DNA from: a virus
Lineage: Duplodnaviria > Heunggongvirae > Uroviricota > Caudoviricetes
IMG/VR virus record: IMGVR_UViG_3300035688_000604
Strand: one strand, 5' to 3'
DNA length: 37,439 nucleotides
The notes under the pieces were generated by a model that was given only the letters and a program-made list of their open reading frames with translations, was not told the DNA's origin and searched no databases. Below are positions 3,652-30,986 of the stretch, piece after piece (within the stretch, counting starts at the first letter, position 1; the number at the start of each line of letters is the position of its first letter). The position numbers were made by a program, and so were the translations under genes.

Positions 3652-4086
3652 TTAAACTTTGACTTTCTTCTCTCGTAATAATTTACCAGCAGTTGTTTTC
3701 TCTGCTGGTGTGAATTTGACTTTACCAGTTTTCTTGATATAATCTACCATTGTATGCATCTTTATTTTTTCCTTTGATATGCTATCCTTAGTCTTCCAAG
3801 AACCTCTGACTTCCATCTCAAAATCTGGCTCTAACTTCTTATTCCTTGCATCAACTTTTAAAACCCAAGTCCTCATATCATATTCACTCGCTATGACTTC
3901 TGCAAACATCTTGGCAGATTTTAGATTATCCCAAAGATAAATATATTCTGGTCGGCTCTTCGCAGAAACAGTCGGAATATATTCTGGTAATTTTTTCTTT
4001 GGTTTAAGACCTTCAACAAGAATACCAAGAGTTTTTAAAGCATCGGCTACATGATACATCTCTGCCTTGTTAATTTTATGAACCAT
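3652..4086 (-). CDS. MVH-start protein, putative ADP-ribosyltransferase fold (Tpt1/KptA/DUF952-like)
   Basis: Starts MVHK; MYH...ILVEGLKP...YIYLW...A...VLKVD...PD...W...I..EKI pattern matches Tpt1/KptA-like ART domains by eye. Confidence 0.5.
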   Translation of the reverse strand: MVHKINKAEMYHVADALKTLGILVEGLKPKKKLPEYIPTVSAKSRPEYIYLWDNLKSAKMFAEVIASEYDMRTWVLKVDARNKKLEPDFEMEVRGSWKTKDSISKEKIKMHTMVDYIKKTGKVKFTPAEKTTAGKLLREKKVKV

Positions 4087-4088
4087 TT

Positions 4089-4271
4089 TTACACCTTTTT
4101 AATTACCTTAAAATTTTGATTTATAAGAACACGCCTGAAGTCTTTCATTTCTTTTTCATTCTTGAATTTCATAGTTAAACAATGCAAATGTAAATCTGCC
4201 TGAAATTTATTCGGATAAACAATAATCGTTGATGGAATCGATTTTCTATAATAAATAATCTTGTGAACCAT
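4089..4271 (-). CDS. MVH-start small basic protein (60 aa)
   Basis: ATGGTTCACAAG at 4271, 1 nt after the stop of the 810-aa gene; more likely start than 4322. Confidence 0.7.
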   Translation of the reverse strand: MVHKIIYYRKSIPSTIIVYPNKFQADLHLHCLTMKFKNEKEMKDFRRVLINQNFKVIKKV

Positions 4272-4272
4272 C

Positions 4273-6705
4273 TTATATTCCTTCGCCAGTTTTCTTACCA
4301 AATGAAGAGAATATAAAACCAAACATTGCAGTCACTGACAAAATAATGATAAAAATTGCAAGTGGCGGGCTCATACCTAATAAGAGATTACCCACACCTT
4401 CACCCACATCAGAAAGTGTGTCATTTAATTGTGTCGGCATACAAGAAAGACCGTATGATTTGATATAGTTCGTTGTGAAATTAAAAGATTCAAACAGTGG
4501 ATTGCATTTTATTGCAGTTGCGTTGAAAGTATAATTTATGTAGTAATCCCTAACAGCATCTGCATGATAACAATCAGATGGACAAGTTTCAACATATTCA
4601 AGACCGACCAAATCAATATCATTTGCTACTCCAGAAAATAATGTATTATCCTTGCTATCCTTCACGATGGCAATTGGATTGTTATTAGTAGTCAAATTCA
4701 CATACCAATATCTCCAAATTTCTGAAGTAGAATCACCAATATAATACAAACTTTCATCATCACCAAATGAACAGTTTATGCATGTCAAAGTCGTATCATA
4801 TAAAGCATAATTTTCTGTCAATCCAATAAACATGCTATCAGTGAAATTAAAATATTGATGCCAACTTGGATAAGAACCATCTAACCCCCAATCACTATCT
4901 CTGCTCACAACATTTCTTCCTGTGATATTTGAATTCTCATAAGTTATTTGATTTGTTTTAACATTCTCTAATTTCACATCCGCATCTGAAAAGAACATGG
5001 AAGAACCATTCTGCATATTCATATTTTTGAAAGTAACATTCTGGCAATTTTGACACATAACATACATCGTATCTTCGGTTATATCTTGATTGGAGATGTC
5101 TTTATGATAATATAGAGGTAATCCATTAGCAATATTGTTACTGAATTCTTGAGGAACAAAATATAAATCAACCGTCTTAAAAATGTAATTTTCAACTGGG
5201 TCATAAGCATTCGTCACTGTGAAATTATTATTTTTGATTGTTCCAGTTCTTGCTGAAGTATCCCAATTTGCAAATCCCCCCCTTGAAGTTATCACTGTAT
5301 TGTTAGCAAAAACAAAGTAATCACTGATATAATAGTCCCCAATGTCAGAAGACATAGAACCATTATAAAGCGTGTTATTTTCCACTAACGTATTGTTGAA
5401 ACCAACTAATCTTACCGCTCTATACTGTATATCAGAAGAAATGTTGTTATATTGAACTAAAGCATCAGTTCCATTTCGTAAATATACTCCATAATTGCCA
5501 TCAATCGTATTGTTTATGAAAGTTACACCATTAGAATTATCAACATAAACAATATAATTACCTGTGTTGTTATAGAAATTATTGCCTCTGAAAACATGAT
5601 TATAACCACCATCAAGCCATATTGCATACAGAGCATCATTTATATCATTATTTTCTATAGTCACGTTATCATAACTTCCATACCCCCCTGTAGATGCAAT
5701 TCCTATAGTCCAAGTTTTAAGTTTGCATCCGTTTATTGTTACGTTTGAATGACCCATTTCATATATCCCGTCTATCTCAGTATCTTTATAAACATCATAC
5801 GGTTCAACTCCAACAATCTCCGTTCCATTGCATTCTATATCTACATTGTCAGACATTATTTCTATAGCACCACAATGATAAGGTGGAGTTAAACAGTCTG
5901 TATCATTTATAATATAAGTCCCATTACAAAAATGATATGTTCCTGAAGAAGTTATTTCCAAATCACTTGTTGGTGTGACTCCACAATCTTGACAACAGTT
6001 TTGATAATTTTCATTTCCCTCACAAATATCATCCCCACAAATTGAATAATCCACTGACATTATCGGTGGATAATATCCACTAACAAGACATGGACAGTAT
6101 TGATAAGGGTCTTGAGTGCAAACCCAATCAGTTCCATTCCAACTAACAGAATTATCAGCAGGTTTGTCTTTTGAATTAGCCATCAAATATCCAACATAAT
6201 TAGCACCTGTATATGGGGTTATTGCAAAACTAACATAACCATCATTTTGATGTTTTAATGCAATTGGTAACACATCCCATGTCCAATTTAATTTTTGTCC
6301 ATTTCCATACGGAAAACCATAACTAAAAATATAATCCCCATAGGGTGGTTTATTAGTCCAATTAATCGTGTTCTCATCCCAACTTTGGTTTATTTCATAA
6401 AGGTATACATTAAATCCATTATGATTTAAATCGACTGTTAACCAATCAAAACAATCAGTAAAATTTGCATTAACCACACTTGAATTTTCTGGTAAGGTCA
6501 TATTAAATGCAAAGAATCCTTCAGCATCTCCAAAAGATGGGCTGGGTCTATCATCAACAGAAATCCATATTTTATCTCCACCCACACCACCATCATAAAA
6601 ATTAATATAAGCATCATCAATCGGAGTAAAATTTGCACCATAAAGAGCATTCACACTATTGAAAGAAAGACATAAAAAGAGAAATATTATGATGATTCTC
6701 TTCAT
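4273..6705 (-). CDS. Secreted surface/adhesin-like protein: DNRLRE-like domain, CGDxxC repeat, parallel beta-helix, conserved C-terminal anchor
   Basis: N-terminal signal peptide; DDAYIN...WDENTINWTNKP; CGDDICEGNENYQNCCQDCG; IxNN repeats; C-term TLSDVGEGVGNLLLGM + TM + GKKTGEGI. Confidence 0.85.
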   Translation of the reverse strand: MKRIIIIFLFLCLSFNSVNALYGANFTPIDDAYINFYDGGVGGDKIWISVDDRPSPSFGDAEGFFAFNMTLPENSSVVNANFTDCFDWLTVDLNHNGFNVYLYEINQSWDENTINWTNKPPYGDYIFSYGFPYGNGQKLNWTWDVLPIALKHQNDGYVSFAITPYTGANYVGYLMANSKDKPADNSVSWNGTDWVCTQDPYQYCPCLVSGYYPPIMSVDYSICGDDICEGNENYQNCCQDCGVTPTSDLEITSSGTYHFCNGTYIINDTDCLTPPYHCGAIEIMSDNVDIECNGTEIVGVEPYDVYKDTEIDGIYEMGHSNVTINGCKLKTWTIGIASTGGYGSYDNVTIENNDINDALYAIWLDGGYNHVFRGNNFYNNTGNYIVYVDNSNGVTFINNTIDGNYGVYLRNGTDALVQYNNISSDIQYRAVRLVGFNNTLVENNTLYNGSMSSDIGDYYISDYFVFANNTVITSRGGFANWDTSARTGTIKNNNFTVTNAYDPVENYIFKTVDLYFVPQEFSNNIANGLPLYYHKDISNQDITEDTMYVMCQNCQNVTFKNMNMQNGSSMFFSDADVKLENVKTNQITYENSNITGRNVVSRDSDWGLDGSYPSWHQYFNFTDSMFIGLTENYALYDTTLTCINCSFGDDESLYYIGDSTSEIWRYWYVNLTTNNNPIAIVKDSKDNTLFSGVANDIDLVGLEYVETCPSDCYHADAVRDYYINYTFNATAIKCNPLFESFNFTTNYIKSYGLSCMPTQLNDTLSDVGEGVGNLLLGMSPPLAIFIIILSVTAMFGFIFSSFGKKTGEGI

Positions 6706-9700
6706 ATTCCTTCACCCGTCTTCTTGCTGATTGATGCGATTATGAATCCAAACATCGCAGTCACAGATAAAAGAATGATGAATATTACTAACGGGTTGCT
6801 CATATTCAACAATAAATTACCTACACCCTGCCCTATATCTTCTCCAGTCTCACTGAATCCTCTTATTCCAATAAATGTAAGATTCAAACCATGTAGATAA
6901 TTGGTAAGCATATCCAGACTCAAGTATAAACTACCATAATTATTTTTCCAGAGCGTCAAGTTATAAGGTGCGTATTCCTCATAGTAGATATTTCCAGAAT
7001 CTTCCCACATCCTGTATCGAGGAACAGCCAAATTAATCAAACTTGATATATTGCTCAATACAGTATTGCCAAATCTGTTTTTTAGTAGAATGTTGACTGA
7101 AAGTGGAGTTGGGCTTCCGAATAACCCAGACTTAATCCACCATTTTCTGAAGACATTAGCACCGACATCCAAGTAATCAGTGCTGTTATCATAAGTAACA
7201 TTAGTCATGTTCATGTTTGCTTGATATACATACAATTCTGCTGAGTTATTTGTCATAGTAGAATCGTATACATCACAATTACTTACTTCACACGCTATAC
7301 TGTTATCGCTATTTTCTACTTTTATCTTTCTCATAGTTCCATTTGAAACGACAAATTCAATGCCACCCCAAGCATGATTCGTATTTATATTCTCTGCATT
7401 GCAATTAGAACATCCACCAAACTGTAAATATTGTTTGCTTCCAACATTCTGATTCTTTACAGTAACATTATTAGAAAGAACTATAAAAAGCAGATTTGTC
7501 TCAGTATCAAATTGGTCTGAACTTATTACTGTGTTATTTATGCTTTTATTGTAGAAAATTGGTCTCCCATTCGCTGTGTTGCTCGTGTCTATATCATTAT
7601 CATAAGCCTCAATGTTTTCTCCATATATATAAAATGACGTTAAATAATTTAAAAGAGACGAAGTGAAGTTATTATCACGCATATAAACATTACCTGTAGT
7701 TGTAGTAGCAGGAATAAACTGGAAAGCATTTCGTTCTGATGAGAATGTGTTGTTTATTACACGGGTTCTACCAGACCTTAATAGAAGACCAGAAGAGTAG
7801 ATATTTGAAATGAATTCATTATTAGTTATATTTAAAAACCCGTCTCCTATATCAAAATCGGAATTTGCATCCTGAATTCCATATCTGGCTATATTATCTG
7901 CACGATTTCTGTCTATTGTTCCATTTGTTGTGTTCCCTAACCATATTCCTGCACGAACATGAGAAGCATAATTGTCTGTTATGTTGAAATATTTAACATC
8001 TTCAAGCCTATATCCAACTTGTTCTGGATTTGATGGATATGAGGTTTCATTGCAATCATTACCTATTATATCTATGTTGTATATGAATTCATAATTACCC
8101 CAAGTAGCAACACAATGACCAGCACCCGTTCTAACTTTATTGAATGTGTTGTTCTGGATTGTTATGTTTTCTCCGTATTCGTCTATATGAATTCCTATAT
8201 AATAATCCATGAAATTTGAATCCCTTACATCTATATTTGTTATATTATCCATCCAAACATTATCCCCACTTGTGTTATAAACAGTTGAATCATCTATTGT
8301 AACATTATCACTGTTTGTAATTTGAATACCATTGCTATCAAAGTTAGACAAAGTGCAATTATCTATAATCGCATCACTCGTATTAAATAAGTTTATACCA
8401 TTACTCCCCCCAACAAAAACAGTATCACTAATCAAAATATTAGAATGTATATTTTCAGCATGAACCCCCTCATTACAGTCATGAACATAATTATCATGAA
8501 AACTCAATGATGTCTCTAATGGTCTGACAAATAATAAACAATTTTGTGAGTTATATAATTCAGAATTCTTTATTTCAACATCTCCACCACCATCATCTGA
8601 AGCATAATTTCTAACTGTATCATGAATATCAACATTATCAAAAACAACATCTGTCCCGTTATTAGTTATAGCAACCCCAACCTGACAATTTTTTATTTCA
8701 CTATTAGACCAATGAATATTAGATGCGTTATGTGCTATTTCAGAACCAAATAGACCACTCGTATCAACACTCACATTGTCTATAGAAACATTGTATGTAT
8801 TATCAGCAATGGTCATACCATCAAAACCAACATCATGAATGTCAATATCAATCATGTTTATATTATGAGAATCACCCCATACCCCCCCTGCTCTATCACT
8901 AATATTCCATACTTCACCCAAATCAAAATCAACATTATAAACATCAATCAATACTATTCCTTCTTGCGAATCTGTTACATTAAAGTTTTGGACTGTAATG
9001 TTTCGAGAACCGTCATCAATATAAATCCCGTTATCATTACTTCCATCACCAAATACAGTTATATTGTCTAATGTGATATTATCAGATGATTCTAAATAAA
9101 CACCGTTACCAAGATGCTCTATATACCCATTTGTAAATACACCGACTTCTCCATTTTCATTTGTAGCCCTGCCATAAATTCCATTATTTACATTATGCAT
9201 CTCATAATTACTAATGTTCCAATTCTGACCAGTATGTGCTTGAAGGACATCTAAATAGATTCCACTATCTGCATCGTTTATTTTAATATTATTTAGATTT
9301 ATACCATAAGAAGGCACATCTGTTCCTGCTCTAATCCATGCAATGATAAAAATCCCTTTATCAAGACTGTCATTGATACTTATATTATTACCAGATACAT
9401 TTTGAACACCTTGCAGAACAATTCCTTTATTCTGATTTACTGAAGTAAGATTATTAATTGTGATGTTACTTACATTACAAAATGTAACACCCGTATTAAC
9501 AGTATCAAATATATTGACATTTTTTAGTTCGACATTAGCAGATGAATTTATTAATATTCCAGAACCAGAAGCCCCATTGATAGTAACATTATCAATATAT
9601 ACAGTGATTGCATCGAAAGCATCAATACAATTTCCAGTGCAGTTCTCAAAAGTGACATTTATAATCGTCACATTGCTCGACCCTACATGAACTCCTTCAT

Positions 9701-10991
9701 TAAAATTAGTCCAAGTGCAGTTTCTTATCGTCACATTGTCATGACCATTAACGTTAAAACCCCAACCATTTCCATCACCAATTATCTCAGAATTATTGCA
9801 GTCAAATATAAAATTATTTGCATTCGCTATGAAGACACCATTTGATTCATCATCAGTCATGTTATATGAAGAATTTTCAGAATAAAGAAGCACACTATCA
9901 TTTATATAATTGTCATCTTGGAGAATATTACCACTACCAACAGAATAAGGCAATCTCGAACCACAATCTTCAGGACAGTTCTCCCATGTCTCATTAACTG
10001 GAAGACAACAACCATCACCGCAAGTTGATGGATTAAGTTCTATTTCCATATATGCATGATGTGCTGTATCTTCATTTTCTTGAGCAATAAAATGTAAACT
10101 GTCAGATTGATAATGTTCTGCATCCAACTCAATCATAACATCATAACCACTACGAGGCATGCATGAACCGTTGAAACGACCATCATCGCAAGAACAAGTT
10201 AATGGAGAACAATCATCATTTGGTTTAAAGGAATAATATTTTGGGTTTACAGTCCTGTTTATAGTCCAATTAGTAAGATTCCATTCGACCCATCTTGGAG
10301 TCCCAGATATATCCCCATTCCAGATTGAATCAAAAGCAAACCACTCTGGTATTTTACTGAATGCAGAATTTCCTGCTTGGCAAGATTGTGAACTGCAATT
10401 ATATATTAAAGTTTTTCTCATCGCCCTCATTATATTATATGCATCTCCAGTATAGTTAGTCCCATCACACCAACTATCACAATCATGGTATTTGTCCTCA
10501 TATTTCAGAGGATGTATATAAACACCGCCATCACCAGTCACAGCACCACCATCTGAATACATATAAAGAGTAGCATTCTTTACGAGACAAGAAGGAATCT
10601 CAAAATATTCCCCATCATTGGTTATACCTTTAGTCATATCAAACCACACAACAGTATCTTGGTCTGAAGAATAATAAGCCCCTGTAGGATTATTCTTTCC
10701 AGCACAAAGACCAGCAGTTCCAGACCCACTGTATTCGGCTACCCACAACTGAGAATCCCCTAAACCTTCGCACATTCCTTCAAAAGAAGGACACTTTTGA
10801 GCACAATATCTTTCACCGTTAATACAAGGATTCCATTGACAACCACCACTTAATGCATAATTACCAGTCATCCAAGCATCTTCAGTTATATTAACTCTGA
10901 CAATTGAAGGAACATAATCTGCCCTCACAGAAGTCATACTAAGAACTAAGAAAAGCCCTAAAAATGCTACAAGAAACAGTTTTAATTGCAT
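6702..10991 (-). CDS. Large secreted parallel beta-helix (NosD/pectin-lyase-like) surface protein with conserved C-terminal anchor
   Basis: Signal peptide, Cys-rich N-region, CGDGCC...NCPEDCG, long G/N-rich beta-helix repeats, C-term DIGQGVGNLLLNM + TM + KKTGEGI. Confidence 0.85.
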   Translation of the reverse strand: MQLKLFLVAFLGLFLVLSMTSVRADYVPSIVRVNITEDAWMTGNYALSGGCQWNPCINGERYCAQKCPSFEGMCEGLGDSQLWVAEYSGSGTAGLCAGKNNPTGAYYSSDQDTVVWFDMTKGITNDGEYFEIPSCLVKNATLYMYSDGGAVTGDGGVYIHPLKYEDKYHDCDSWCDGTNYTGDAYNIMRAMRKTLIYNCSSQSCQAGNSAFSKIPEWFAFDSIWNGDISGTPRWVEWNLTNWTINRTVNPKYYSFKPNDDCSPLTCSCDDGRFNGSCMPRSGYDVMIELDAEHYQSDSLHFIAQENEDTAHHAYMEIELNPSTCGDGCCLPVNETWENCPEDCGSRLPYSVGSGNILQDDNYINDSVLLYSENSSYNMTDDESNGVFIANANNFIFDCNNSEIIGDGNGWGFNVNGHDNVTIRNCTWTNFNEGVHVGSSNVTIINVTFENCTGNCIDAFDAITVYIDNVTINGASGSGILINSSANVELKNVNIFDTVNTGVTFCNVSNITINNLTSVNQNKGIVLQGVQNVSGNNISINDSLDKGIFIIAWIRAGTDVPSYGINLNNIKINDADSGIYLDVLQAHTGQNWNISNYEMHNVNNGIYGRATNENGEVGVFTNGYIEHLGNGVYLESSDNITLDNITVFGDGSNDNGIYIDDGSRNITVQNFNVTDSQEGIVLIDVYNVDFDLGEVWNISDRAGGVWGDSHNINMIDIDIHDVGFDGMTIADNTYNVSIDNVSVDTSGLFGSEIAHNASNIHWSNSEIKNCQVGVAITNNGTDVVFDNVDIHDTVRNYASDDGGGDVEIKNSELYNSQNCLLFVRPLETSLSFHDNYVHDCNEGVHAENIHSNILISDTVFVGGSNGINLFNTSDAIIDNCTLSNFDSNGIQITNSDNVTIDDSTVYNTSGDNVWMDNITNIDVRDSNFMDYYIGIHIDEYGENITIQNNTFNKVRTGAGHCVATWGNYEFIYNIDIIGNDCNETSYPSNPEQVGYRLEDVKYFNITDNYASHVRAGIWLGNTTNGTIDRNRADNIARYGIQDANSDFDIGDGFLNITNNEFISNIYSSGLLLRSGRTRVINNTFSSERNAFQFIPATTTTGNVYMRDNNFTSSLLNYLTSFYIYGENIEAYDNDIDTSNTANGRPIFYNKSINNTVISSDQFDTETNLLFIVLSNNVTVKNQNVGSKQYLQFGGCSNCNAENINTNHAWGGIEFVVSNGTMRKIKVENSDNSIACEVSNCDVYDSTMTNNSAELYVYQANMNMTNVTYDNSTDYLDVGANVFRKWWIKSGLFGSPTPLSVNILLKNRFGNTVLSNISSLINLAVPRYRMWEDSGNIYYEEYAPYNLTLWKNNYGSLYLSLDMLTNYLHGLNLTFIGIRGFSETGEDIGQGVGNLLLNMSNPLVIFIILLSVTAMFGFIIASISKKTGEGI

Positions 10992-10996
10992 TTAGA

Positions 10997-11054
10997 CCTA
11001 TTATATATAATAGGAGATAAACTATTTAAAATTTTCTAAAAATTTTAAAATTTT
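10997..11054 (-). promoter_or_regulatory. Repeated archaeal promoter element, copy 1, including a perfect 18-bp palindrome
   Basis: Minus-strand AGAAAATTTTAAATA (BRE/TATA-like; TATA at 11023-11030) ~32 nt before the ATG at 10991; cctattatatataatagg palindrome at 10997-11014. Confidence 0.7.
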
Positions 11055-13242: not shown

Positions 13243-13248
13243 TGTTAT

Positions 13249-13303
13249 CTATTATATATTAGGAGATAAAGTATTTAAAATTTTCTAAAAATTTTAAAAT
13301 TTT
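13249..13303 (-). promoter_or_regulatory. Repeated archaeal promoter element, copy 2
   Basis: Near-identical to 10998-11054 (aggagataaa-tatttaaaattttctaaaaattttaaaatttt); TATA at 13272-13279, ~30 nt before the ATG at 13242. Confidence 0.7.
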
Positions 13304-13350
13304 CATTTTGATGTCAAAACTATTTAAATTTTAAAAATAAAAAGATAGTC

Positions 13351-13772: not shown

Positions 13773-13874
13773 TCCTTTCATACTAAACACAGCAAATAAT
13801 TTAGTTAAAAAAGTATTAATAATTGAAAAACCGACCAAAACAATCTTTAAATCTTTTAAATTTAAATATTTTGC

Positions 13875-16014: not shown

Positions 16015-16323
16015 CTACCACAAGGCATTAACAGATTCCAAGAAGCCACGAGCAAAGGATTGTTTTTTCAGACCAATTTTCTCAAGCATCTTTCTTTCAA
16101 GCATTTCTGTATATTCTGCCCGTTCTTTGACAATCTTGGTTCTGACATCGAGTTTTTTCATCAACGGATTCTTCTGTATCAACCATTCATTCTTTTTCGC
16201 ATCTTCAAGATATTCCCATTGTTCAAGAACAGGAGACCATTTATCCCTATTAAGTTTTGTATCAAAATATACTCTATAAGCCATCGCTATTCTTTTTTTT
16301 GGGTCTGTGATTTTATGAACCAT
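16015..16323 (-). CDS. MVH-start protein, paralog of 19858-20190
   Basis: MVHKITDPKKRIAMAYRVY...LEQWEYLEDA...KIVKE...RGFLES aligns with the 110-aa ORF; TAATG coupling. Confidence 0.8.
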   Translation of the reverse strand: MVHKITDPKKRIAMAYRVYFDTKLNRDKWSPVLEQWEYLEDAKKNEWLIQKNPLMKKLDVRTKIVKERAEYTEMLERKMLEKIGLKKQSFARGFLESVNALW

Positions 16324-19857: not shown

Positions 19858-20190
19858 TCATCCCCAATAATAAAATAGACTCTCCAACGCTCCTCTTGCA
19901 ACTGAGCGTTTCTTCATCCCAAGTTTTTCAAGGAAATGTCTTTCAGACATCTCCAATGGCTCTGCTGGTTCTTTAACAATCTTGGCTGTTATACCAATCT
20001 TCTTGAATGATGGGTCTTTTTCCATCATCCATAAAGCATTCTCAGCATCCTCAAGATATTTTCTTTGCTCAAGCATTGGAAACCATCCTTTAGCGAATGG
20101 AAATACTTTCGTAAAAGTTTCTGGATATTTGATATATATTCTGTAAGACATTGCAATCTTTTTTCTTGGGTCGCCAATTCTATGAACCAT
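19858..20190 (-). CDS. MVH-start protein, paralog of 16015-16323
   Basis: MVHRIGDPRKKIAMSYRIY...LEQRKYLEDA...KIVKE...RGALES. Confidence 0.8.
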   Translation of the reverse strand: MVHRIGDPRKKIAMSYRIYIKYPETFTKVFPFAKGWFPMLEQRKYLEDAENALWMMEKDPSFKKIGITAKIVKEPAEPLEMSERHFLEKLGMKKRSVARGALESLFYYWG

Positions 20191-20198
20191 TTTATCGC

Positions 20199-20480
20199 CT
20201 AACCCAACGCTCTCATTTCCTCAGTTTTTTCTTCTGGTTTCTTTTCCGCTTCTTTGTGAGAACCACCAAGTGAATCCAAGAACTCGTCCATTGATTCTTC
20301 GTAATCATCTATTATGTCTTTCTCGTCTTCTGCTTCTTTCTTCTGAATTGCTTCGACTGGTTGCGGTTCTTCTTTTTTGAGTTCCTCGATTAGTGCCTTG
20401 TCTTTCTGAATCTCCTTCTCGAATTCTTTCATATCCTCTTCCAAATGAGCGATTATTTTTTCATGCATTTTATGAACCAT
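20199..20480 (-). CDS. MVH-start acidic coiled-coil protein
   Basis: ORF track; MVHKMHEK, E/K-rich. Confidence 0.75.
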   Translation of the reverse strand: MVHKMHEKIIAHLEEDMKEFEKEIQKDKALIEELKKEEPQPVEAIQKKEAEDEKDIIDDYEESMDEFLDSLGGSHKEAEKKPEEKTEEMRALG

Positions 20481-20708
20481 TTAAATTTTCACCTTTTTCA
20501 CGATATTAAAATCATAAATTGATTCTACTTTACCAGTAGGTAATTTAATATCAATAACATCTAAAGTTCCTTGATGTGGTGCATCTTCCATAATTTTTAC
20601 AATTGATTTAATTTTTAACCAGTTCGTAGCAGGATATGATTCTTTGAGACCTATACCTGTAGGTTCAACTAAAACAAAACTACCTTTTTTTATCCATTTA
20701 TGAACCAT
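20481..20708 (-). CDS. MVH-start small beta-rich (SH3/KOW-like) protein
   Basis: MVHKWIKKGSFVLV...; GGTGA RBS; fold call tentative. Confidence 0.7.
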   Translation of the reverse strand: MVHKWIKKGSFVLVEPTGIGLKESYPATNWLKIKSIVKIMEDAPHQGTLDVIDIKLPTGKVESIYDFNIVKKVKI

Positions 20709-20715
20709 ATTTTAT

Positions 20716-20889
20716 TCACCCCGCTAAAAACCAAGCAAGTGTCATAATCTTTTGTGCGTTCCTATATTGTTTAGGCGTATATTTTTCTCTATACTTGATT
20801 ATCCTTTCTGCCTTTAATATTTTCTTCTGGATGTCTGGCTCAAGATGTGATATTCCCATTTCTTCTGCTTTTGTAATTCTATGAACCAT
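20716..20889 (-). CDS. MVH-start micro-ORF (57 aa)
   Basis: Hand translation MVHRITKAEEMGISHLEPDIQ...LAWFLAG; TAATG coupling. Confidence 0.7.
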   Translation of the reverse strand: MVHRITKAEEMGISHLEPDIQKKILKAERIIKYREKYTPKQYRNAQKIMTLAWFLAG

Positions 20890-21029
20890 TACATCGACCT
20901 CTTTTTCATCTTTCTCAGCATATAACGCATCTTTCCTATCGTCCTGCTATGCATCTTCCTGAAATATTGCTCCATCGTGTTGCTAAATCTCTTCATTGTT
21001 ATCATTGAATCTTTTCGTTTATGAGCCAT
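20889..21029 (-). CDS. MAH-start basic micro-ORF (46 aa)
   Basis: MAHKRKDSMITMKRF...MKKRSM; TAATG overlaps at both ends. Confidence 0.7.
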   Translation of the reverse strand: MAHKRKDSMITMKRFSNTMEQYFRKMHSRTIGKMRYMLRKMKKRSM

Positions 21030-21259
21030 TATTCTTTCACACCCCATTTACCATTGAACTTATCACCGAATAATAAATTATCTTGCTCGTCTGTAATCTT
21101 AATCAGGTCTGGTTTGTATGTCTCGAATGAAATCGTCCCTTCTCTAACCATCTTTGCAATCTGTTCTGCATTGAGACCGACTTGCTCAGTCATCATGTTT
21201 CCAAACCAGACTATCCAAGTCTTCTCAGGTTTTTCTTCAATCTCGATTTTGTGAACCAT
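21029..21259 (-). CDS. MVH-start protein (76 aa)
   Basis: MVHKIEIEEKP...; ATG at 21259 overlaps the upstream TAA. Confidence 0.75.
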   Translation of the reverse strand: MVHKIEIEEKPEKTWIVWFGNMMTEQVGLNAEQIAKMVREGTISFETYKPDLIKITDEQDNLLFGDKFNGKWGVKE

Positions 21260-21405: not shown

Positions 21406-21407
21406 AA

Positions 21408-21557
21408 TTACCACTCATACGGATTAAAATATCCTTGACCTATTATCCAATTTAATTCTACTGTCGTTGGTTTTCTTCCAACTTCCTTCTTGAATAATCT
21501 TTCTAATTTTTCTACGTCTTCATAAGTCATTTTTCTCTTCACTTTAATTATATGCAT
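21408..21557 (-). CDS. MH-start micro-ORF (49 aa)
   Basis: MHIIKVKRKMTYEDVEKLERLFKKEVGRKPTTVELNWIIGQGYFNPYEW; TAATG coupling. Confidence 0.65.
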   Translation of the reverse strand: MHIIKVKRKMTYEDVEKLERLFKKEVGRKPTTVELNWIIGQGYFNPYEW

Positions 21558-21664
21558 TAACTTCCACCCAAACCTTTTTTCAATCTTCTTATATAATTGC
21601 TCATACCGCTATCGCTAAACATGTCTCCTACTCCCTTCTTCTTTTCGAGTTTGTGCATTCTCAT
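21557..21664 (-). CDS. Micro-ORF (MR)MHKLEKKKGVGDMF... (33-35 aa)
   Basis: ATG at 21664 (ATGA overlap) or at 21658 (gives MHK); fills the gap exactly. Confidence 0.55.
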   Translation of the reverse strand: MRMHKLEKKKGVGDMFSDSGMSNYIRRLKKGLGGS

Positions 21665-22299
21665 ACCCATTCAATTTTAGTTTCCTTCTTCCAGTTGTTA
21701 TTCTTCTTTGATTTTTCTTCTTTTTTTGGTAGCAGTAGTGAAGGTATCGTCTTAGTGACAAATTTTGACGCACCAGCAAGAGCCTCTTTTATTTTCGGAA
21801 CAGCCTCTTCCAATTCTTCCATGACAGGTTTCTTTACTGGTCGTTGCATATATATTTCAGGTGCTACTCCATGCTCTGGAACTTCAATTTCATGTGTCTC
21901 AATGAAAGGTATTCTTGGTCTCTCTTTTGGCAAAGCACCTTCCTCAATTTCCATTTTTGTCTTCTCAAGTTCTTTCTCCATAAGGTCTTTTCTGAGGTTG
22001 AATATCTCTTCCCTTTCTTCTTTCAATTTCTCTCGCTCTTCTTCTGCAAGGCTTTTCGCTTCATCGAGTTCCTCTTGTTTTTCTTCTGCCAAATCCTCTG
22101 CCTCTCTTTCTGCGTAATAGTTTTCGATTTGTTTGTTGAACTGCTCTATCTCCCTGTCTCTTTGTGCCAATTCTGTATCCATCTCTTCCAACCAACTCGA
22201 TGCACCATCTACAGTATCGAGTCTATGAATCCCTGCCTTATGATTGGCAGGCATTTTATCTACTTGAAACTTCATAGTGTCTGTTAATTTATGAACCAT
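21661..22299 (-). CDS. MVH-start acidic coiled-coil protein (212 aa)
   Basis: MVHKLTD; internal AGIHR; long E/K/R heptad region. Confidence 0.8.
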   Translation of the reverse strand: MVHKLTDTMKFQVDKMPANHKAGIHRLDTVDGASSWLEEMDTELAQRDREIEQFNKQIENYYAEREAEDLAEEKQEELDEAKSLAEEEREKLKEEREEIFNLRKDLMEKELEKTKMEIEEGALPKERPRIPFIETHEIEVPEHGVAPEIYMQRPVKKPVMEELEEAVPKIKEALAGASKFVTKTIPSLLLPKKEEKSKKNNNWKKETKIEWV

Positions 22300-22301
22300 A
22301 C

Positions 22302-22466
22302 TTACATCCTAAACTTTTTAGCCCATTCCACCAATCCTTGTTCCGCCTCATAATATTCTGCTGGCGTGACACCTGTATCTTCCTCTTTCTTTTTCTTTTT
22401 TAACAATTTTTGTAATCTTTTTATTGTTTTCTCTATCTCATGCTCAGTTTTTTGGAACGTGTGCAT
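22302..22466 (-). CDS. MH-start micro-ORF (54 aa)
   Basis: MHTFQKTEHEIEKTIKRLQKLLKKKKKEED...WAKKFRM; GGTGA RBS. Confidence 0.65.
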   Translation of the reverse strand: MHTFQKTEHEIEKTIKRLQKLLKKKKKEEDTGVTPAEYYEAEQGLVEWAKKFRM

Positions 22467-22474
22467 TACATCAC

Positions 22475-22696
22475 CTATTTACATTTTTTACATGATTTTT
22501 TCTTCTTAATAATTTTTTTCTTTTTGGTTTTCATTTTCTTTCCACCTACTTCTTTACCCGCTCTCTTCAGAGCACCTTTGACTGGTTCTGCTCCATGCTT
22601 CATAAGAGCAGTGTAAATCGGGACAGTAGCCATTCCACCGAACATACCACCCATTCCAGCACCGACATCGGAAAGACTTCCACTTATTGTATGCAA
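22475..22696 (-). CDS. MH-start protein homologous to the adhesin C-terminal anchor (73 aa)
   Basis: TTG start after GGTGA; SLSDVGAGMGGMFGGMA...GKEVGGK aligns without gaps to TLSDVGQGVGNLLLNMA...GKGIGGK; K-rich tail with CKKC. Confidence 0.7.
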   Translation of the reverse strand: MHTISGSLSDVGAGMGGMFGGMATVPIYTALMKHGAEPVKGALKRAGKEVGGKKMKTKKKKIIKKKKSCKKCK

Positions 22697-22700
22697 TCAA

Positions 22701-22994
22701 TCACCTTTTTTTTAATTTTACACTTGTCCCCCATTCACTCCAATCATGAATGTCTGTTTCTCCGCCCCCAACTGGCATAGTCCAAAATTCCCAATATCCT
22801 TTGAAAAATGTCTTGATTCTTTTTCTATCTTCTGGGTTCATTTCTTCCAAAGATTTTTCTGGGTCTAACACCCTTGTAACTTCTTCTTCACCATATCTCG
22901 TTTTTACAATATCCCCTTCCTCTGGGGGTCGTGACATTTCTGGCATTAACCTAAACCCATCAACTATTCTAACTTTTTTGATTTTGTGAACCAT
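22701..22994 (-). CDS. MVH-start protein (97 aa)
   Basis: ORF track; MVHKIKKVR. Confidence 0.75.
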   Translation of the reverse strand: MVHKIKKVRIVDGFRLMPEMSRPPEEGDIVKTRYGEEEVTRVLDPEKSLEEMNPEDRKRIKTFFKGYWEFWTMPVGGGETDIHDWSEWGTSVKLKKR

Positions 22995-23315
22995 TTAACC
23001 AGTCCTCTTTAATTCGACATTCATATCAATTATCTCATCCATTTGAACAACACCATAAGCAGTTCCAATCAGAGCGATTTTATTATGAGATGAAAATACT
23101 TCAAAATCTTTCTGGTAGAAATCTTCATCTTTGTTATGAATATCGAGACCGCCAACAGGGAAAACTATTTTGTATTTTGGACTCCATAATTTATGCCTTC
23201 TTAAAAGATACTCGATATTTTTTGCTACATTTTTGTCATTGAAATCTTGAAAAATATCTGTGAGTTCTAAAACTTCTTCCTCACTTATTTTCTTTCTCTT
23301 AATTTTATGAACCAT
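22995..23315 (-). CDS. MVH-start protein (106 aa)
   Basis: MVHKIKRKK; ATG overlaps the adhesin stop (TAATG). Confidence 0.75.
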   Translation of the reverse strand: MVHKIKRKKISEEEVLELTDIFQDFNDKNVAKNIEYLLRRHKLWSPKYKIVFPVGGLDIHNKDEDFYQKDFEVFSSHNKIALIGTAYGVVQMDEIIDMNVELKRTG

Positions 23316-26248: not shown

Positions 26249-26595
26249 TACCATTCACCATATTCAATTTCTTCTTTTTCTTTTTTTGGTGGAAGCGTGA
26301 CTCTTATAGGTCTTCTTGTCGGCTCTCTGTGAAGTATTCTTTCTTGAACGAATGCCCTTCCTTTCTTCAATGCCCTTGCAGTATCTCTTGCAATTTTTTG
26401 AGCCTTTGCATAATATCTAACTGCACTTTGATACATCTCTACTGCTTCTTTTGCTTGACGCTCATACTCTTTCTTCTGCCTATCAACCCAATCTTCTTCA
26501 CTTTCTTCTTTTCCAACCTCTACGCCAAATCTTTTCAAGTCTTCCTCAAAAGACTTCATCGCATCTTTTGGTTCTCTCTTCTTTTTATGAACCAT
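26248..26595 (-). CDS. MVH-start charged helical protein (115 aa)
   Basis: MVHKKKREPK; TAATG at both ends. Confidence 0.75.
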   Translation of the reverse strand: MVHKKKREPKDAMKSFEEDLKRFGVEVGKEESEEDWVDRQKKEYERQAKEAVEMYQSAVRYYAKAQKIARDTARALKKGRAFVQERILHREPTRRPIRVTLPPKKEKEEIEYGEW

Positions 26596-27446
26596 TATTT
26601 TTCACCCTTCATCTTCTTTATTTTTTTAATAGCCTCTGGGATTATTTTCTCCATCGGTTCTCCTTTTTGCAGTTTGTCCACAAACTCAACGAAGACTTTA
26701 TCTTCGACTGTTCCTTTTGATGGGTCAGTCCCAGTTAATGCAGTGAACTTGAATTTTTCTGGGTCACGATGAACTTTTAATAAATTATTGACAATTTTCT
26801 TGACTTTTGTTGAGTCTTTTTTCTGAACGAAGAAATCATATCCAGAAGAAAATACATTTGAAGTCCTTGAAAAAACTTTTGCATAGGCTACTTTCATATC
26901 ACCCAATTCTTTTGTCAGTTTTTCATCGAAATCTTCCAAGTCACCAGCATCTTCAGACATAGATAATATGCAATCGGAATGAACATTGACCCAATCTTTG
27001 CTTGTTACTTCATAATATCCACGCCATGCATCAGTAGAATGCCATTCAACTTCAAAATCACCTTGAGTCTCATCGGTGTAATGACATATAGCATGAGGAT
27101 ATGTATCGCCACCTTCCTCTGACTCATCCATCGGTGCTTGTGGATAATTGTAATAATAAACCGTTGCAGAAGGTTCTTCGGTATCATACTCAACTAACGC
27201 ATCAGAATCTCCTTTTGCCTTTTCTTCTGCATCTTCCTTTGTCAGTTCTCCTTTCTCATATTTTTCTTTGTAGTCGTTATAAATATCTCTGACTTCTTTT
27301 TCCCATTCATCTGTGTTTATATCTGGAAAATATGTTAATGAACTCTTGAAATCATCAAACGATTTGAAGTCTGATTTGTGCTTTCCAGCCTTATGTATTC
27401 CTCTCCCTGTCCTTGATATTTTATCTTTTTTTATTAAGTGAACCAT
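26595..27446 (-). CDS. MVH-start phage-type hypothetical protein (283 aa)
   Basis: MVHLIKK...GRGIHK; TDAWRGYY and SNVFSSG motifs resemble phage hypothetical families. Confidence 0.75.
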   Translation of the reverse strand: MVHLIKKDKISRTGRGIHKAGKHKSDFKSFDDFKSSLTYFPDINTDEWEKEVRDIYNDYKEKYEKGELTKEDAEEKAKGDSDALVEYDTEEPSATVYYYNYPQAPMDESEEGGDTYPHAICHYTDETQGDFEVEWHSTDAWRGYYEVTSKDWVNVHSDCILSMSEDAGDLEDFDEKLTKELGDMKVAYAKVFSRTSNVFSSGYDFFVQKKDSTKVKKIVNNLLKVHRDPEKFKFTALTGTDPSKGTVEDKVFVEFVDKLQKGEPMEKIIPEAIKKIKKMKGEK

Positions 27447-27447
27447 T

Positions 27448-27822
27448 TTATACCCACTCCTGTTTTAATTTGTAAGCACCTTCATGGCTGTAACTTCCGT
27501 CTGGATTTCTGTATAAATGTTCTGAAAGACCATAGACTACATGAAATCCCATATCCATACCAGCACCAGATACCCTCAAACCATCCCTGTCCATATCTCT
27601 TTTATAACCAAGAACTTTTTCTATATACCAATCTATACTTCTCGGTCTGCCATCCTTTCCTATCACAAAACAACTTATGACCCTGAACATACCAGAAGAA
27701 CTGACATGCCTCAAGATAGTATAAACCTTGTAATCAGATTCCTCTAAAATCTTTTTTAACTCATTCTCTGCCTGAGCAAGTTCTTGTTCCTTCAAACCTT
27801 TTTTCCTTATCTTGTGAACCAT
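27448..27822 (-). CDS. MVH-start protein of a conserved phage hypothetical family (GMDMGF motif)
   Basis: VYTILRHVSSSGMFRVI...VSGAGMDMGFHVVYGLS; true start at 27822 (TGATG coupling). Confidence 0.75.
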   Translation of the reverse strand: MVHKIRKKGLKEQELAQAENELKKILEESDYKVYTILRHVSSSGMFRVISCFVIGKDGRPRSIDWYIEKVLGYKRDMDRDGLRVSGAGMDMGFHVVYGLSEHLYRNPDGSYSHEGAYKLKQEWV

Positions 27823-28298
27823 CAATCCCACCATGACCTAATTATTTTCCCGCCTTCTTGTTTTACGAATGGGGCAGGGGCTTTTTTTACTAATCCAACT
27901 TCATCGGCTTCTCCAGTTTTTTTTAATTCTCTCATTATTCTTTGCGGATTATGCCCTTCAGGTTTTATGTAAATGACAACAGAAGATTCTCTTCCCAGTT
28001 TTGTTCTTGCTTTAGGAAATTTCTTCAATATAGAATAAACATTTTCAGGTTCAAACTGATTATACACGCCAGCAATCTTTGCAACTTTTAACCAATCTTC
28101 AGGTATCATATAGGAAGTTCCTTTCCATTTAAGGTTTCTTGTTTGATATGCAATTTTTTCTTCTTTTGGGGTTGATTTTCCTGTTATAAAAGAATCAGCG
28201 TAAGCAACTTTAGTTTTCTCTATTTCTTTTTGAATATCATATTTATGGATTCCTCTACCAAACTTTATTTTCCTTAATTTCATAATTTTGTGAACCAT
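27822..28298 (-). CDS. MVH-start protein (158 aa)
   Basis: MVHKIMK...GRGIHK; YNQF...GRESSVVIYI...ADE. Confidence 0.75.
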   Translation of the reverse strand: MVHKIMKLRKIKFGRGIHKYDIQKEIEKTKVAYADSFITGKSTPKEEKIAYQTRNLKWKGTSYMIPEDWLKVAKIAGVYNQFEPENVYSILKKFPKARTKLGRESSVVIYIKPEGHNPQRIMRELKKTGEADEVGLVKKAPAPFVKQEGGKIIRSWWD

Positions 28299-28510
28299 TA
28301 AACTCTCAACCTCAATCTTCTTCTTTCTTTTTCTAATTTTTCTGGATGTATGAATTCAGGAATTACTCCCTCTTCAGTTTCCCTTCCGACTTCTTTTATG
28401 CTTTTCCCGCTAATCGTTCTGAGACCTCTTATGAAAGCAAGGTTCATTCGTAACTGTCCTTCTAACTCTCCTTTCGTCTCTCCATAAGTCCTGTCAAACA
28501 TGTGAGACAT
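28298..28510 (-). CDS. MSH-start protein (70 aa)
   Basis: MSHMFDRTYGE; ATG at 28510 overlaps the upstream TAA; more likely start than 28561. Confidence 0.65.
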   Translation of the reverse strand: MSHMFDRTYGETKGELEGQLRMNLAFIRGLRTISGKSIKEVGRETEEGVIPEFIHPEKLEKERRRLRLRV

Positions 28511-28722
28511 TATTCTTCTTCCTCTTCTTCTTTTTCTTCTTCCAAACCCATCTCCTTCCAAGTGTCTTCCATTTCTTTTACTACTGATTCCCCTTCTCTA
28601 CTTGCACCCTCACCAAACTCTTCAAGACTCTTCATCTCATTCGTCATATCTTTCCATTCAGCATCCAATTTTCTTTCATATTCAGAGAGTGCATCCGTTT
28701 CTCTAACTTTTTTATGAACCAT
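28510..28722 (-). CDS. MVH-start acidic protein (70 aa)
   Basis: MVHKKVRETD...EEEKEEEEE. Confidence 0.7.
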   Translation of the reverse strand: MVHKKVRETDALSEYERKLDAEWKDMTNEMKSLEEFGEGASREGESVVKEMEDTWKEMGLEEEKEEEEEE

Positions 28723-28724
28723 AA

Positions 28725-28865
28725 TCATTCATCCTCTTCAAACATTTTTTCTCTTTCTTTATCGAGTTTCGCCACGAAGTTTGTCTGATAATCAATCATA
28801 GCACCGAGAGATTTTACAATCTCAATATCTTTCTTCAATTCTTTTTTTGGTTTTTTATGAACTAT
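28725..28865 (-). pseudogene. MVH-type ORF with ATA in place of ATG (46 codons): non-canonical start or pseudogene
   Basis: TAATAGTTCATAAAAAA at the position where neighbours have TAATGGTTCAT; open frame (I)VHKKPKKELKKD...MFEEDE. Confidence 0.55.
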
Positions 28866-29212
28866 TATCTCATCCTCTTTATTTTTCCAGTCTTCTCATC
28901 GACTTTCAATGAGAACTTTTTTTCATACAACGGTCTCCATGATGAAGCACCAAATATCGGGTCTGGCTCAAAACTTATCTTCTGACCAATGACATTCTCA
29001 TAGATTTTTTTGTTTGAAACATAAGGAAAATTCGTAGAACTAATATCGAATGCGTCATCTATACCATCACGCATAGGTCTCCAATCACCTGATATTGTTA
29101 TCATCCTACCGCTTGGTGTTTTTACATCCATACTCCACATAGTTCCCATATCATGGACTGACATGATTATTCCAGTATTTTCAACCTTTGATTTTTTTAT
29201 TCTATGAACCAT
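28865..29212 (-). CDS. MVH-start OB/beta-rich protein (115 aa)
   Basis: ORF track; MVHRIKKSK; fold tentative. Confidence 0.75.
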   Translation of the reverse strand: MVHRIKKSKVENTGIIMSVHDMGTMWSMDVKTPSGRMITISGDWRPMRDGIDDAFDISSTNFPYVSNKKIYENVIGQKISFEPDPIFGASSWRPLYEKKFSLKVDEKTGKIKRMR

Positions 29213-29218
29213 AAATTA

Positions 29219-29368
29219 TCACACCGTTACATTTTTGGGTAATTTTTTAAAAGTTTTCCCATCATACAAAAATAATTCTCCTTTTTGATTTTCGTAAACA
29301 TCTATTTTTGTGTCATGCCCTATTAACATTCCTTTTTGTTTCCAATCCTTTGTTATTTTATGAACCAT
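29219..29368 (-). CDS. MVH-start micro-ORF (49 aa)
   Basis: MVHKITKDWKQKGMLIGHDTKIDVYENQKGELFLYDGKTFKKLPKNVTV. Confidence 0.7.
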   Translation of the reverse strand: MVHKITKDWKQKGMLIGHDTKIDVYENQKGELFLYDGKTFKKLPKNVTV

Positions 29369-29372
29369 CAAA

Positions 29373-29513
29373 TCATCTCTTTCTTTTTAATTCATCATGC
29401 ATATTTTCATTAACAACCCACAATCTATCCGAATAATGTTTATAACTATCTAAATCCCTTTTCTTTATTTTTTCAAGATTTTTTTCGATGTCTTTTAATA
29501 ATCTATGAACCAT
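29373..29513 (-). CDS. MVH-start micro-ORF (46 aa)
   Basis: MVHRLLKDIEKNLEKIKKRDLDSYKHYSDRLWVVNENMHDELKRKR; TAATG coupling. Confidence 0.7.
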   Translation of the reverse strand: MVHRLLKDIEKNLEKIKKRDLDSYKHYSDRLWVVNENMHDELKRKR

Positions 29514-30082
29514 TATACCATCTCCTTCACGACTTCAGCATCAGTCGTTATTGGAATACCGCCACGCTCAACATTTTTTTCGCTTAATCCTTTCATCTCT
29601 CCAGTCAATCTCTTGCATTCTTTTTCAGCACTTTCTTTTGTCTTGTAAACTTTCGGGTCTAATGTCTTCGGCATTCCAGCCATAGGACTCCATTTGATTC
29701 TCCATTTTCCAGTCCATATTGGCTCTCTTATTCTTGGACGCAATTGTGTCCAAGTAGTATTGACTGAATAACCATCATAAGTTCTGAAATACCATTTACT
29801 ATTCATGTGAACAAGATTTTCTTCCCAGTTTGTTTCATCTTCATCTCCTTCATAACTGAGTTGTTGGTCAAAATCAGCAAAACCATCTAAATAATTATGT
29901 TCAAATTTATTGGCATTGCCATAATCCCAAGATTCAACAGCATCGAAAGGTTGTTCCTTATCAAGATAATTTAGAAGTTGTTTTTTAGACATCTTTTTTA
30001 TTTTATCAAAGAATTCCTTCTCAAGTTTATGGATTCCTCTAACTGAATATGCACTACCCTCTTTTTTTTTCATCCTATGCAA
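29513..30082 (-). CDS. MH-start protein (189 aa)
   Basis: TTG-CAT-AGG-ATG; RGIHK at residues 15-19; VYKTKESAEKEC motif. Confidence 0.7.
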   Translation of the reverse strand: MHRMKKKEGSAYSVRGIHKLEKEFFDKIKKMSKKQLLNYLDKEQPFDAVESWDYGNANKFEHNYLDGFADFDQQLSYEGDEDETNWEENLVHMNSKWYFRTYDGYSVNTTWTQLRPRIREPIWTGKWRIKWSPMAGMPKTLDPKVYKTKESAEKECKRLTGEMKGLSEKNVERGGIPITTDAEVVKEMV

Positions 30083-30097
30083 TTTTTACACCAACCT

Positions 30098-30637
30098 TTA
30101 TTTTCTTTCAGGCATAGCCTTTGCTCTTGCTTCTGGAGACATTGACATCCATTCTTTTCTTGCAGGTTCTGTCATTGCAAGTTTTTCTGCTCCTGTCATC
30201 AGATTTTTCTTGACATATTCTCTGTCAGCCACAAACTTTGGCAACGCACCATCAGTATGTTTTCTGAAAACTGTCTGTGCTTGCAACATCTTGAAAACAC
30301 TTGGAGCACCGAATTCTTTTTCTGCTGAACGCAATGCTCTTCTTCTCTGTTCTTCTGAGAAATGAATTCCATATCCATGTTTCTTCAAAGCACCTTTTCT
30401 TGAAATTTTGATTATTTTCTTTCCTCTACCTAACAAACCAACATCAGGTCTGTGTTGCGTCTTTCCTTTGACACCCCATGTCATCTTTTTTCTCTTTGCT
30501 GTGAACACTTTACCTTTCCTGTGGATTTTCCATTCCATTGTCTTCGCTCTTGCAGTAGTCGGTTTTATGACTACCTTTAATTTAGGTCTCCCAAAACCAA
30601 GCGTAACGGCTTTGGTCTTCTTAACTTTGTGAACCAT
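30098..30637 (-). CDS. MVH-start very basic protein with a giant-virus-like C-terminal domain
   Basis: MVHKVKK at 30637; GALKKHGY...RRRAL..A.KEFG..SVFKML.A..VFRK...F.ADREYV recalls an NCLDV family of unknown function (DUF5771-like, from memory). Confidence 0.6.
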   Translation of the reverse strand: MVHKVKKTKAVTLGFGRPKLKVVIKPTTARAKTMEWKIHRKGKVFTAKRKKMTWGVKGKTQHRPDVGLLGRGKKIIKISRKGALKKHGYGIHFSEEQRRRALRSAEKEFGAPSVFKMLQAQTVFRKHTDGALPKFVADREYVKKNLMTGAEKLAMTEPARKEWMSMSPEARAKAMPERK

Positions 30638-30660
30638 CTTTCTCAACCATTAATTTTTAA

Positions 30661-30819
30661 TTACAAACCCAACTTAGTAGCCTTAGCCTTCGCTTCAGAC
30701 TCTGAAGTTAGACCGCCAGCGACAATCTTCCATTCTCCGAACTTCCCAATCTTATCAGGATTCTGCTCGAAGACAGTCCATCTTTTGGTCTTTGGGTTTT
30801 CTTTAACCATGTGAACCAT
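30661..30819 (-). CDS. MVH-start micro-ORF (52 aa)
   Basis: MVHMVKENPKTKRWTVFEQ...GLTSESEAKAKATKLGL; GAGGT RBS. Confidence 0.7.
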   Translation of the reverse strand: MVHMVKENPKTKRWTVFEQNPDKIGKFGEWKIVAGGLTSESEAKAKATKLGL

Positions 30820-30830
30820 ATTTATTTACC

Positions 30831-30986
30831 TCAAACTCTTTTAAATCCAATACCAATATCTTTCAAAGTTCTAACAATAGTTTTTGCTTCACCAATTGAT
30901 TTTGGATAATTATCATGAAATTCATCTATTAGATTATCAACAGTGTTTATGACATCTTTCTCAATTTTAGTGAATTTATGAACCAT
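30831..30986 (-). CDS. MVH-start micro-ORF (51 aa)
   Basis: MVHKFTKIEKDVINTVDNLIDEF...IGFKRV; GGTGA RBS. Confidence 0.7.
   Translation of the reverse strand: MVHKFTKIEKDVINTVDNLIDEFHDNYPKSIGEAKTIVRTLKDIGIGFKRV

Follow-up and report, generated by a model that had tools for sequence, protein, structure and literature searches.

Integron cassette arrays are characterized by IntI, attI, and attC. HF1-group haloviruses wholly lack palindromic tetramers (GATC, CTAG, and AGCT) and many 6-mers, which has been attributed to host restriction–modification (PMC7230728). The internal-protein locus of T-even phages encodes diverse small defence proteins that have only an N-terminal sequence in common, the capsid targeting sequence (CTS) (PMC3012670). 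PeSLs are non-coding cassettes of a promoter and a stem-loop that mediate the exchange of ORFans (PMC2839356). The stretch analyzed here, 37,439 nucleotides (nt) of the IMG/VR virus record IMGVR_UViG_3300035688_000604 (the window), comes from an uncultivated virus-like element of archaea, approximately 100 kb in size, in which many genes start with a short His-containing N-terminal tag, mostly Met-Val-His encoded by ATG-GTT-CAY (the start box). This tag was found to be conserved as protein, whole genes are lost or replaced at the start box, and the constancy of GTT very probably reflects avoidance of restriction sites. By membership, the element is not an integron, a PeSL, or a T4 CTS system.

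The preliminary description of this locus reported that the Val codon of the start box was always GTT. The counts were confirmed: 24 Val-type starts with GTT, all of them minus-strand, were located between 30986 and 4086, namely, 15 ATG-GTT-CAT, 8 ATG-GTT-CAC, and one ATA-GTT-CAT (at 28865), and the other Val codons are used freely inside genes (GTT 42%, 296/713; GTA 22%; GTC 21%; GTG 16%). The chance assigned to an all-GTT series, 0.5^24 (~6e-8), was based on the wrong null, because GTA and GTC are barred in this context by words absent from the window. Of the 16 palindromic tetramers, eight never occur, nor do several 5- and 6-mers, and the shortfall against Markov expectation is large (GTAC, 0 vs 58.7; GGTCC/GGACC, i.e., GGWCC, 0 vs 21; GATC, 0 vs 130). 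We take GTAC, GGWCC/GGNCC, and GTGCAC to be RsaI-, AvaII/Sau96I-, and ApaLI-type sites, respectively. When the Val codon of ATG-GTN-CAY was substituted, GTA created GTAC at all 24 starts and GTC created GGWCC at 23 of the 24; thus, only GTT or GTG remains at the tags. Substitution to GTG created GTGCAC at the 8 CAC starts. A strict ban on GTGCAC was considered and rejected, as this word occurs in the clade, even at a tag of the related locus L118; it is depleted (8 vs 23 expected, pooled; approximately 2 expected in the window).

Under these constraints, the chance of an all-GTT series was no longer ~1e-9; depending on the control, it came to 4e-4 to 0.03 with GTG permitted at all tags and to 0.004 to 0.09 with GTG-CAC barred. 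GTT is not a general preference at codon 2, since untagged Met-Val starts, in which codon 3 does not begin with C, mostly use GTA (GTA 8, GTC 3, GTT 1, GTG 1). G-ending codons are scarce near gene starts (17 vs 31 expected at codon 4; 3 vs 12 at codon 5), and the residual shortage of GTG fits this low use together with the copying of starts by recombination. The fixation of the start box at the DNA level is real but ordinary. The pattern of absent words matches that described for archaeal viruses evading host restriction–modification (PMC7230728). As in the HF1-group haloviruses, the absence is complete, and in the element the same process removes GTA and GTC; unlike in those viruses, more words are lacking (GGNCC, CCWGG, and GCWGC in addition to 8 of the 16 palindromic tetramers), and through avoidance a protein tag takes on the appearance of a DNA box of fixed sequence.

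Other DNA features that had been pointed out proved to be less specific. TAATG or TGATG junctions do occur, as one-base overlaps at 9 of the 24 starts (7 TAATG, 1 TGATG, 1 TAATA), the remaining gaps being mostly 0–8 nt with two of 11 and 23 nt, but the overlap was rejected as a tag-specific signal because untagged genes are packed equally tightly. ATGA overlaps are impossible at Val-tagged starts because codon 2 begins with G. Moreover, the gapped palindrome ATG-N3-CAT is a by-product of Met-x-His(CAT), and CAC, found at 15 of 19 tags in L121, breaks it.

Approximately 15 distinct related loci (labels within L118–L146) were gathered via homologs of a 256-amino-acid (aa) core protein and of an ATPase, and tagged genes were present in all of those that extend into the array. 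In eleven low-GC loci that avoid both GTAC and GGWCC, the tags carried GTT 111 times, GTG 8 times, and neither GTA nor GTC. GTG was seen at tags in L118, L121, L124, L141, and L146. In the case of L143 (47% GC), in which GTAC occurs 47 times and GGWCC 20 times, the automatic count gave GTA 5, GTT 2, and GTC 1, and the hand count from called genes gave GTA 6, GTT 2, GTC 1, and GTG 1. In the case of L144 (GTAC 0, GGWCC 27), GTC 6, GTT 6, and GTG 1 were counted, with GTA at 0 of 13. GTA is thus found at 0 of 132 tags in GTAC-free genomes vs 5 of 8 in L143, and GTC at 0 of 119 in GGWCC-free genomes vs 7 of 21 in L143 and L144 combined. This is a double dissociation, in which each Val codon returns exactly where its word is tolerated; word counts far below Markov expectation and this return of the codons are both features of restriction-site avoidance.

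The avoided words differ by lineage among these loci. GATC is tolerated in L121, L144, and L145, AGCT in L118, L121, L140, and L141, and GTAC and GGCC in L143 only. Such lineage-specific sets could serve as fingerprints of host restriction systems.

What is conserved is the protein. Among 260 starts supported by a Shine–Dalgarno (SD) sequence in 16 loci, His was at position 3 in 108 and at position 2 in 25, and the enrichment of CAY was confined to the reading frame (codon 2 or 3), with background levels out of frame. Residue 2 was small in all 108 His-3 starts (V 94, A 9, G 2, P 2, T 1) vs 57 of 127 untagged starts. As methionine aminopeptidase removes the initiator Met before a small residue 2, a mature NH2-X-His end is expected in both classes. 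The His is mostly followed by Lys or Arg, and a basic stretch usually comes after the tag. At least 13 more window genes have the same His but no Val (MH, MAH, MSH; starts ATG, TTG, ATT). Orthologs switch tag forms and codons (MAHK to MVHK, MSH to MH, GTT-CAC to GTG-CAT and GTA-CAC; also MVH/MAH/MH), and the start codons of tagged genes vary among ATG, TTG, GTG, ATA, and ATT. In a 124-aa gene of the phrog_12365 family, only two clade members among 120 homologs carry the tag, and homologs from outside the clade lack it; it was thus added on entry of the gene. Tagged products are soluble proteins of 33–283 aa without a transmembrane (TM) segment (maximum 19-residue hydropathy ≤1.27), whereas 10 of 18 untagged products exceed 1.8, and membrane and core genes are untagged. 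These results show that selection acts on the protein N-terminus, whose mature form is NH2-X-His-(Lys/Arg), with X-His being V/A/S/G/P/T-His, or Met-His.

The apparent ATA and ATT start codons of tagged genes stand at SD-consistent spacing (window 28865 and 15076; L118:16228), and the orthologs have ATG.

It had been proposed that ATGGTTCAY is a nucleic-acid signal that requires GTT and acts in translational coupling or re-initiation, in RNA processing, or as a protein-binding site. Such a signal would account for GTT at 24 of 24 window tags and 111 of 119 tags in site-free relatives, including the residual excess over GTG, and the frequent use of CAC at the tags points in the same direction. 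However, GTA is dominant in L143 and GTC equals GTT in L144, and neither the in-frame restriction of CAY nor the varied start codons suits such a signal. Moreover, ViennaRNA folding showed the SD–AUG region to be no more open with GTT than with other codons, and there was no Rfam match. As the Val codons at the relatives' starts are mixed, an outcome that the preliminary description itself had named as refuting, and track the avoided words, GTT fixation does not stand as a DNA signal; given L143 and L144, this explanation is largely refuted, and we consider it extremely improbable. RNA structure, in the form of SD pairing with UCAY or of GTT accessibility, was likewise dropped after folding gave no support. 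Of 119 tags, 49 (41%) have CAC at codon 3, where the share of approximately 22% found inside genes would predict 26; this excess is partly due to context, as His before an A-starting codon is CAC in 37% of cases.

As to the role of the tag, the closest likeness is to the T4 CTS: a conserved N-terminal peptide on unrelated, variable proteins, a variable locus, and strong restriction pressure. The differences are also clear. Whereas the T4 CTS spans approximately 10 residues and is a substrate for cleavage by the prohead protease, the tag of the element has 2–3 residues with an invariant His (X-His-Lys), is present on >35 window genes, and serves packaging only putatively. Capsid, portal, protease, and T4-like head genes had no match in the window or in the flanking core genes scanned. 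By this analogy, the tag may be a sorting signal that brings soluble cargo into particles, a suggestion whose chances we put at slightly under even. Alternatively, the account of GTT given here may hold while the X-His end is a mark for stability or modification, a metal-binding end, or a hitch-hiker of an efficient start cassette copied by recombination. NH2-X-His binds Cu and Ni, as in the GHK peptide. The mature His-2 rule, the basic tail, and the unrelated payloads are all compatible with such a role, and a plus-strand methyltransferase gene (335) that also starts with MH fits a general mark; pure hitch-hiking, by contrast, explains neither why His is kept across MH, MAH, MSH, and MVH switches with changed DNA nor why it is absent from membrane and core genes. 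A non-sorting role of this kind is a serious contender, although we would not call it probable.

The 24 Val-tagged genes, further tagged genes of the window, and the avoided words are as follows.

30831–30986, minus strand: MVHK gene, 51 aa, ATG-GTT-CAT
30661–30819, minus strand: MVHM gene, 52 aa, ATG-GTT-CAC
30098–30637, minus strand: MVHK gene, 179 aa, DUF5771; orthologs ATG-GTG-CAT (L124, L141) and TTG-GTG-CAT (L121)
29373–29513, minus strand: MVHR gene, 46 aa, TAATG overlap
29219–29368, minus strand: MVHK gene, 49 aa
28865–29212, minus strand: MVHR gene, 115 aa; body differs in a peat strain beyond the first 21 nt
28725–28865, minus strand: VHK-tagged gene with ATA start, 46 aa
28510–28722, minus strand: MVHK gene, 70 aa; in strains, breaks lie 14 nt before the start and 21 nt into it
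27822–28298, minus strand: MVHK gene, 158 aa
27448–27822, minus strand: MVHK gene, 124 aa, phrog_12365 family; L143 ortholog ATG-GTA-CAC; non-clade homologs untagged
26595–27446, minus strand: MVHL gene, 283 aa
26248–26595, minus strand: MVHK gene, 115 aa; a strain break lies 11 nt before the start
22995–23315, minus strand: MVHK gene, 106 aa; breaks in two runs 2–4 nt upstream of the start
22701–22994, minus strand: MVHK gene, 97 aa; strain break precisely at ATG
21661–22299, minus strand: MVHK gene, 212 aa
21259–21405, minus strand: MVHK gene, 48 aa; in one X4 contig, first 13 nt followed by a body like that of the next gene
21029–21259, minus strand: MVHK gene, 76 aa
20716–20889, minus strand: MVHR gene, 57 aa; L118 ortholog start probably ATT-CAC (MH form)
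20481–20708, minus strand: MVHK gene, 75 aa; peat strains lack it cleanly and have the start box fused to the start of the gene that follows
20199–20480, minus strand: MVHK gene, 93 aa; L118 ortholog ATG-GTG-CAC
19858–20190, minus strand: MVHR gene, 110 aa; probable paralog of 16323 (common best hit)
16015–16323, minus strand: MVHK gene, 102 aa
4089–4271, minus strand: MVHK gene, 60 aa
3652–4086, minus strand: MVHK gene, 144 aa
30991–31703, minus strand: array head, four non-Val tagged genes (MHK 31703, TTG-AHK 31577, MAHK 31436, TTG-HR 31092)
29513–30082, minus strand: MH-type gene (TTG-CAT), 189 aa
28298–28510, minus strand: MSH-type gene, 70 aa; orthologs MH-type
22302–22696, minus strand: two MH-type genes, one of which (22696) encodes a soluble homolog of a 54-aa membrane module
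21408–21557, minus strand: MH-type gene, 49 aa; peat strains lack it cleanly, with its ATG joined to GTT of 21405
20889–21029, minus strand: MAHK gene, 46 aa
1–37439: restriction-site avoidance; GATC, AGCT, GTAC, CTAG, GGCC, CCGG, GCGC, CGCG, GGNCC, CCWGG, GCWGC, GATATC, and CATATG absent

Gene content is not static, and relatives share with the window only 0–9 of their 11–24 tagged genes. In contigs from two peat runs, with a divergence of a few percent, the gene at 20708–20481 is skipped, with the upstream spacer joined to the next start, and the gene at 21557–21408 is skipped, with its ATG joined to the GTT of 21405. Eight of the 11 distinct loose ends listed lie ≤21 nt from a tagged start, a zone that makes up 7.8% of the stretch (p 2e-7). 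Two types of break were seen: either the start is kept and another body follows after 13–21 nt, or another upstream gene ends 0–14 nt before the ATG. The strain differences are undirected and may thus represent gain or loss. Whole-gene loss or replacement at the start box is shown by these comparisons, and homology-driven crossover or slippage is its likely mechanism.

As the other option, the preliminary description had envisaged an integron-like array without attC, with new open reading frames (ORFs) inserted at a fixed ATGGTTCA junction; a site-specific recombinase or reverse transcriptase (RT) would insert the captured ORFs. Strain differences that consist of whole genes bounded by the start box, the strongly varying gene content, and payload homologs that lack the tag elsewhere are in line with such capture, and the part of the claim that placed gene turnover at the motif was borne out, since strain changes map to the shared start. 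The fixed junction was not. The junction DNA varies across the clade, the clean loss joining 21557 to 21405 fuses an MH and an MVH start that share no more than ATG, and the other breaks are spread rather than located at one base. No attC-like inverted repeats spanning the junctions were found, and the search for an integrase or RT, which covered the larger proteins of the window but not the remainder of the element, gave no match. We therefore regard enzymatic capture at a fixed junction as very unlikely. The spread of the breaks and the join that shares only ATG argue for microhomology plus whole-gene selection rather than a fixed cut.

The array resembles integrons in its tandem, co-oriented, unrelated small ORFs and variable content, but it differs in lacking attC hairpins, in genes that abut or overlap (gaps of -1 to 23 nt), and in its motif, GTTCAYA instead of the GTTRRRY core. 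A fixed crossover at G/TT was not observed, as the Val codon varies and the breaks are spread between a position 14 nt before the start and one 21 nt inside the gene. With PeSLs, the element shares short gene-boundary repeats that act as recombination points for the insertion, deletion, and replacement of non-essential ORFans, and gene gain or loss with breakpoints in the repeat was indeed found; in contrast to PeSLs, its repeat is coding (the first four codons), 12–13 nt long, without a hairpin, and a by-product of a protein motif and a codon constraint.

These results are best explained by three layers, a protein tag, a Val codon set by restriction-site avoidance, and a start box that serves as a gene-swap point, and we hold this account with high confidence. 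Selection keeps the protein start NH2-X-His-(Lys/Arg), and avoidance sets the Val codon: GTAC arises from GTA-CAY, GGWCC from G-GTC-C, and the depleted GTGCAC from GTG-CAC, so that GTT is left over, aided by the general scarcity of G-ending codons near gene starts. Tag and codon constraint together produce a 12–13-nt direct repeat at every gene start, and crossover or slippage inside it would remove or swap whole genes, with SD and tag kept in frame. A foreign ORF fused at the start box would acquire the tag, and a dedicated recombinase would be unnecessary. Finally, the tag may be read by a protein of the element, and the cargo so loaded into the particle or a transfer apparatus would be a variable set of small soluble proteins that act against defence or in host takeover.

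Several points weigh against this account. The Fisher p-values for the return of the codons (1e-7 for GTA and 6e-7 for GTC) overstate certainty, because L143 and L144 are each one contig and tags within a genome are non-independent. The excess of GTT over GTG persists (111:8 in site-free relatives; p 4e-4 to 0.09 in the window) and may come from 5' codon bias, recombinational copying of starts, or a weak RNA-level preference. Moreover, the listed breaks are the best-supported subset, runs X3 and X4 may be one campaign, and selection on whole genes would likewise place breaks near starts.

A false lead is removed, as the p of ~1e-8 for fixation of a synonymous codon collapses once restriction-site avoidance is modeled, and general caution is warranted for DNA-signal claims in viruses with purged palindromes. 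The real object is a His tag of 2–3 N-terminal residues that is kept as protein throughout a clade of archaeal elements and that might be a compact signal for loading cargo. In the start box, two unrelated pressures can yield a cassette-like array without an integrase. A literature search for the tag returned nothing relevant, and the combination of tag and swap array is undescribed in the literature searched. More speculatively, and with doubt prevailing, the loci could represent an undescribed clade of membrane-associated archaeal viruses, in which NH2-X-His-Lys marks dozens of unrelated soluble proteins for particle loading and delivery to the next cell, and avoidance creates a self-tagging cassette array, so that an inserted gene gains expression signals and a delivery address.

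Concerning its setting, the window encodes five large signal-peptide proteins of the beta-helix or LamG type, a P-loop ATPase, and small membrane proteins. Its ribosome-binding sites are GGTGA or GAGGT and never GGAGG, because GGAGG/CCTCC is absent from the whole window (0 vs 19.5 expected at 1–37439). A 91-kb Joint Genome Institute contig carries an identical protein and a gene order matching the window. No relatives were found in viral_contigs, where a pattern scan returned single-match loci only, and the core gene was not found in GTDB genomes, the one match there being weak and spurious. The ATPase model (predicted local distance difference test, 62) gave weak RecA-like matches, with Zot/AAA proteins as Atlas neighbours.

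The five large surface proteins end in a common membrane module (window C-termini at 23315, 16323, 11053, 6702, and 4273). A homologous stand-alone protein of 54 aa occurs in relatives, often in two copies (L121:9467–9887, L143:9673–9837, L144:5339–5742, and L146:6913–7077), and is also homologous to the tagged gene 22696. With its acidic start, amphipathic helix, TM segment, and basic end, the 54-aa module looks like a major coat protein that also occurs in natural display fusions; it had no match in PDB or PHROG.

The methyltransferase gene at 335–1069 (plus strand; phrog_15480), which starts with Met-His, adjoins a topoisomerase-like gene (phrog_6247). An AT-rich, TATA-like block occurs in nearly identical form at ~31730–31770, before the head of the tagged array, and at ~13250–13300, before the surface-protein operon (both minus strand). 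L120 (minus strand, 14673–12513 and 4020–5), L129, and L133 form one sub-lineage in which the 256-aa core gene has the opposite orientation to its neighbours, with tagged arrays on either side of it. An internal (R/A)GIHK motif is present in tagged proteins of distant relatives (L146:11885–12619 and L120:570–1124).

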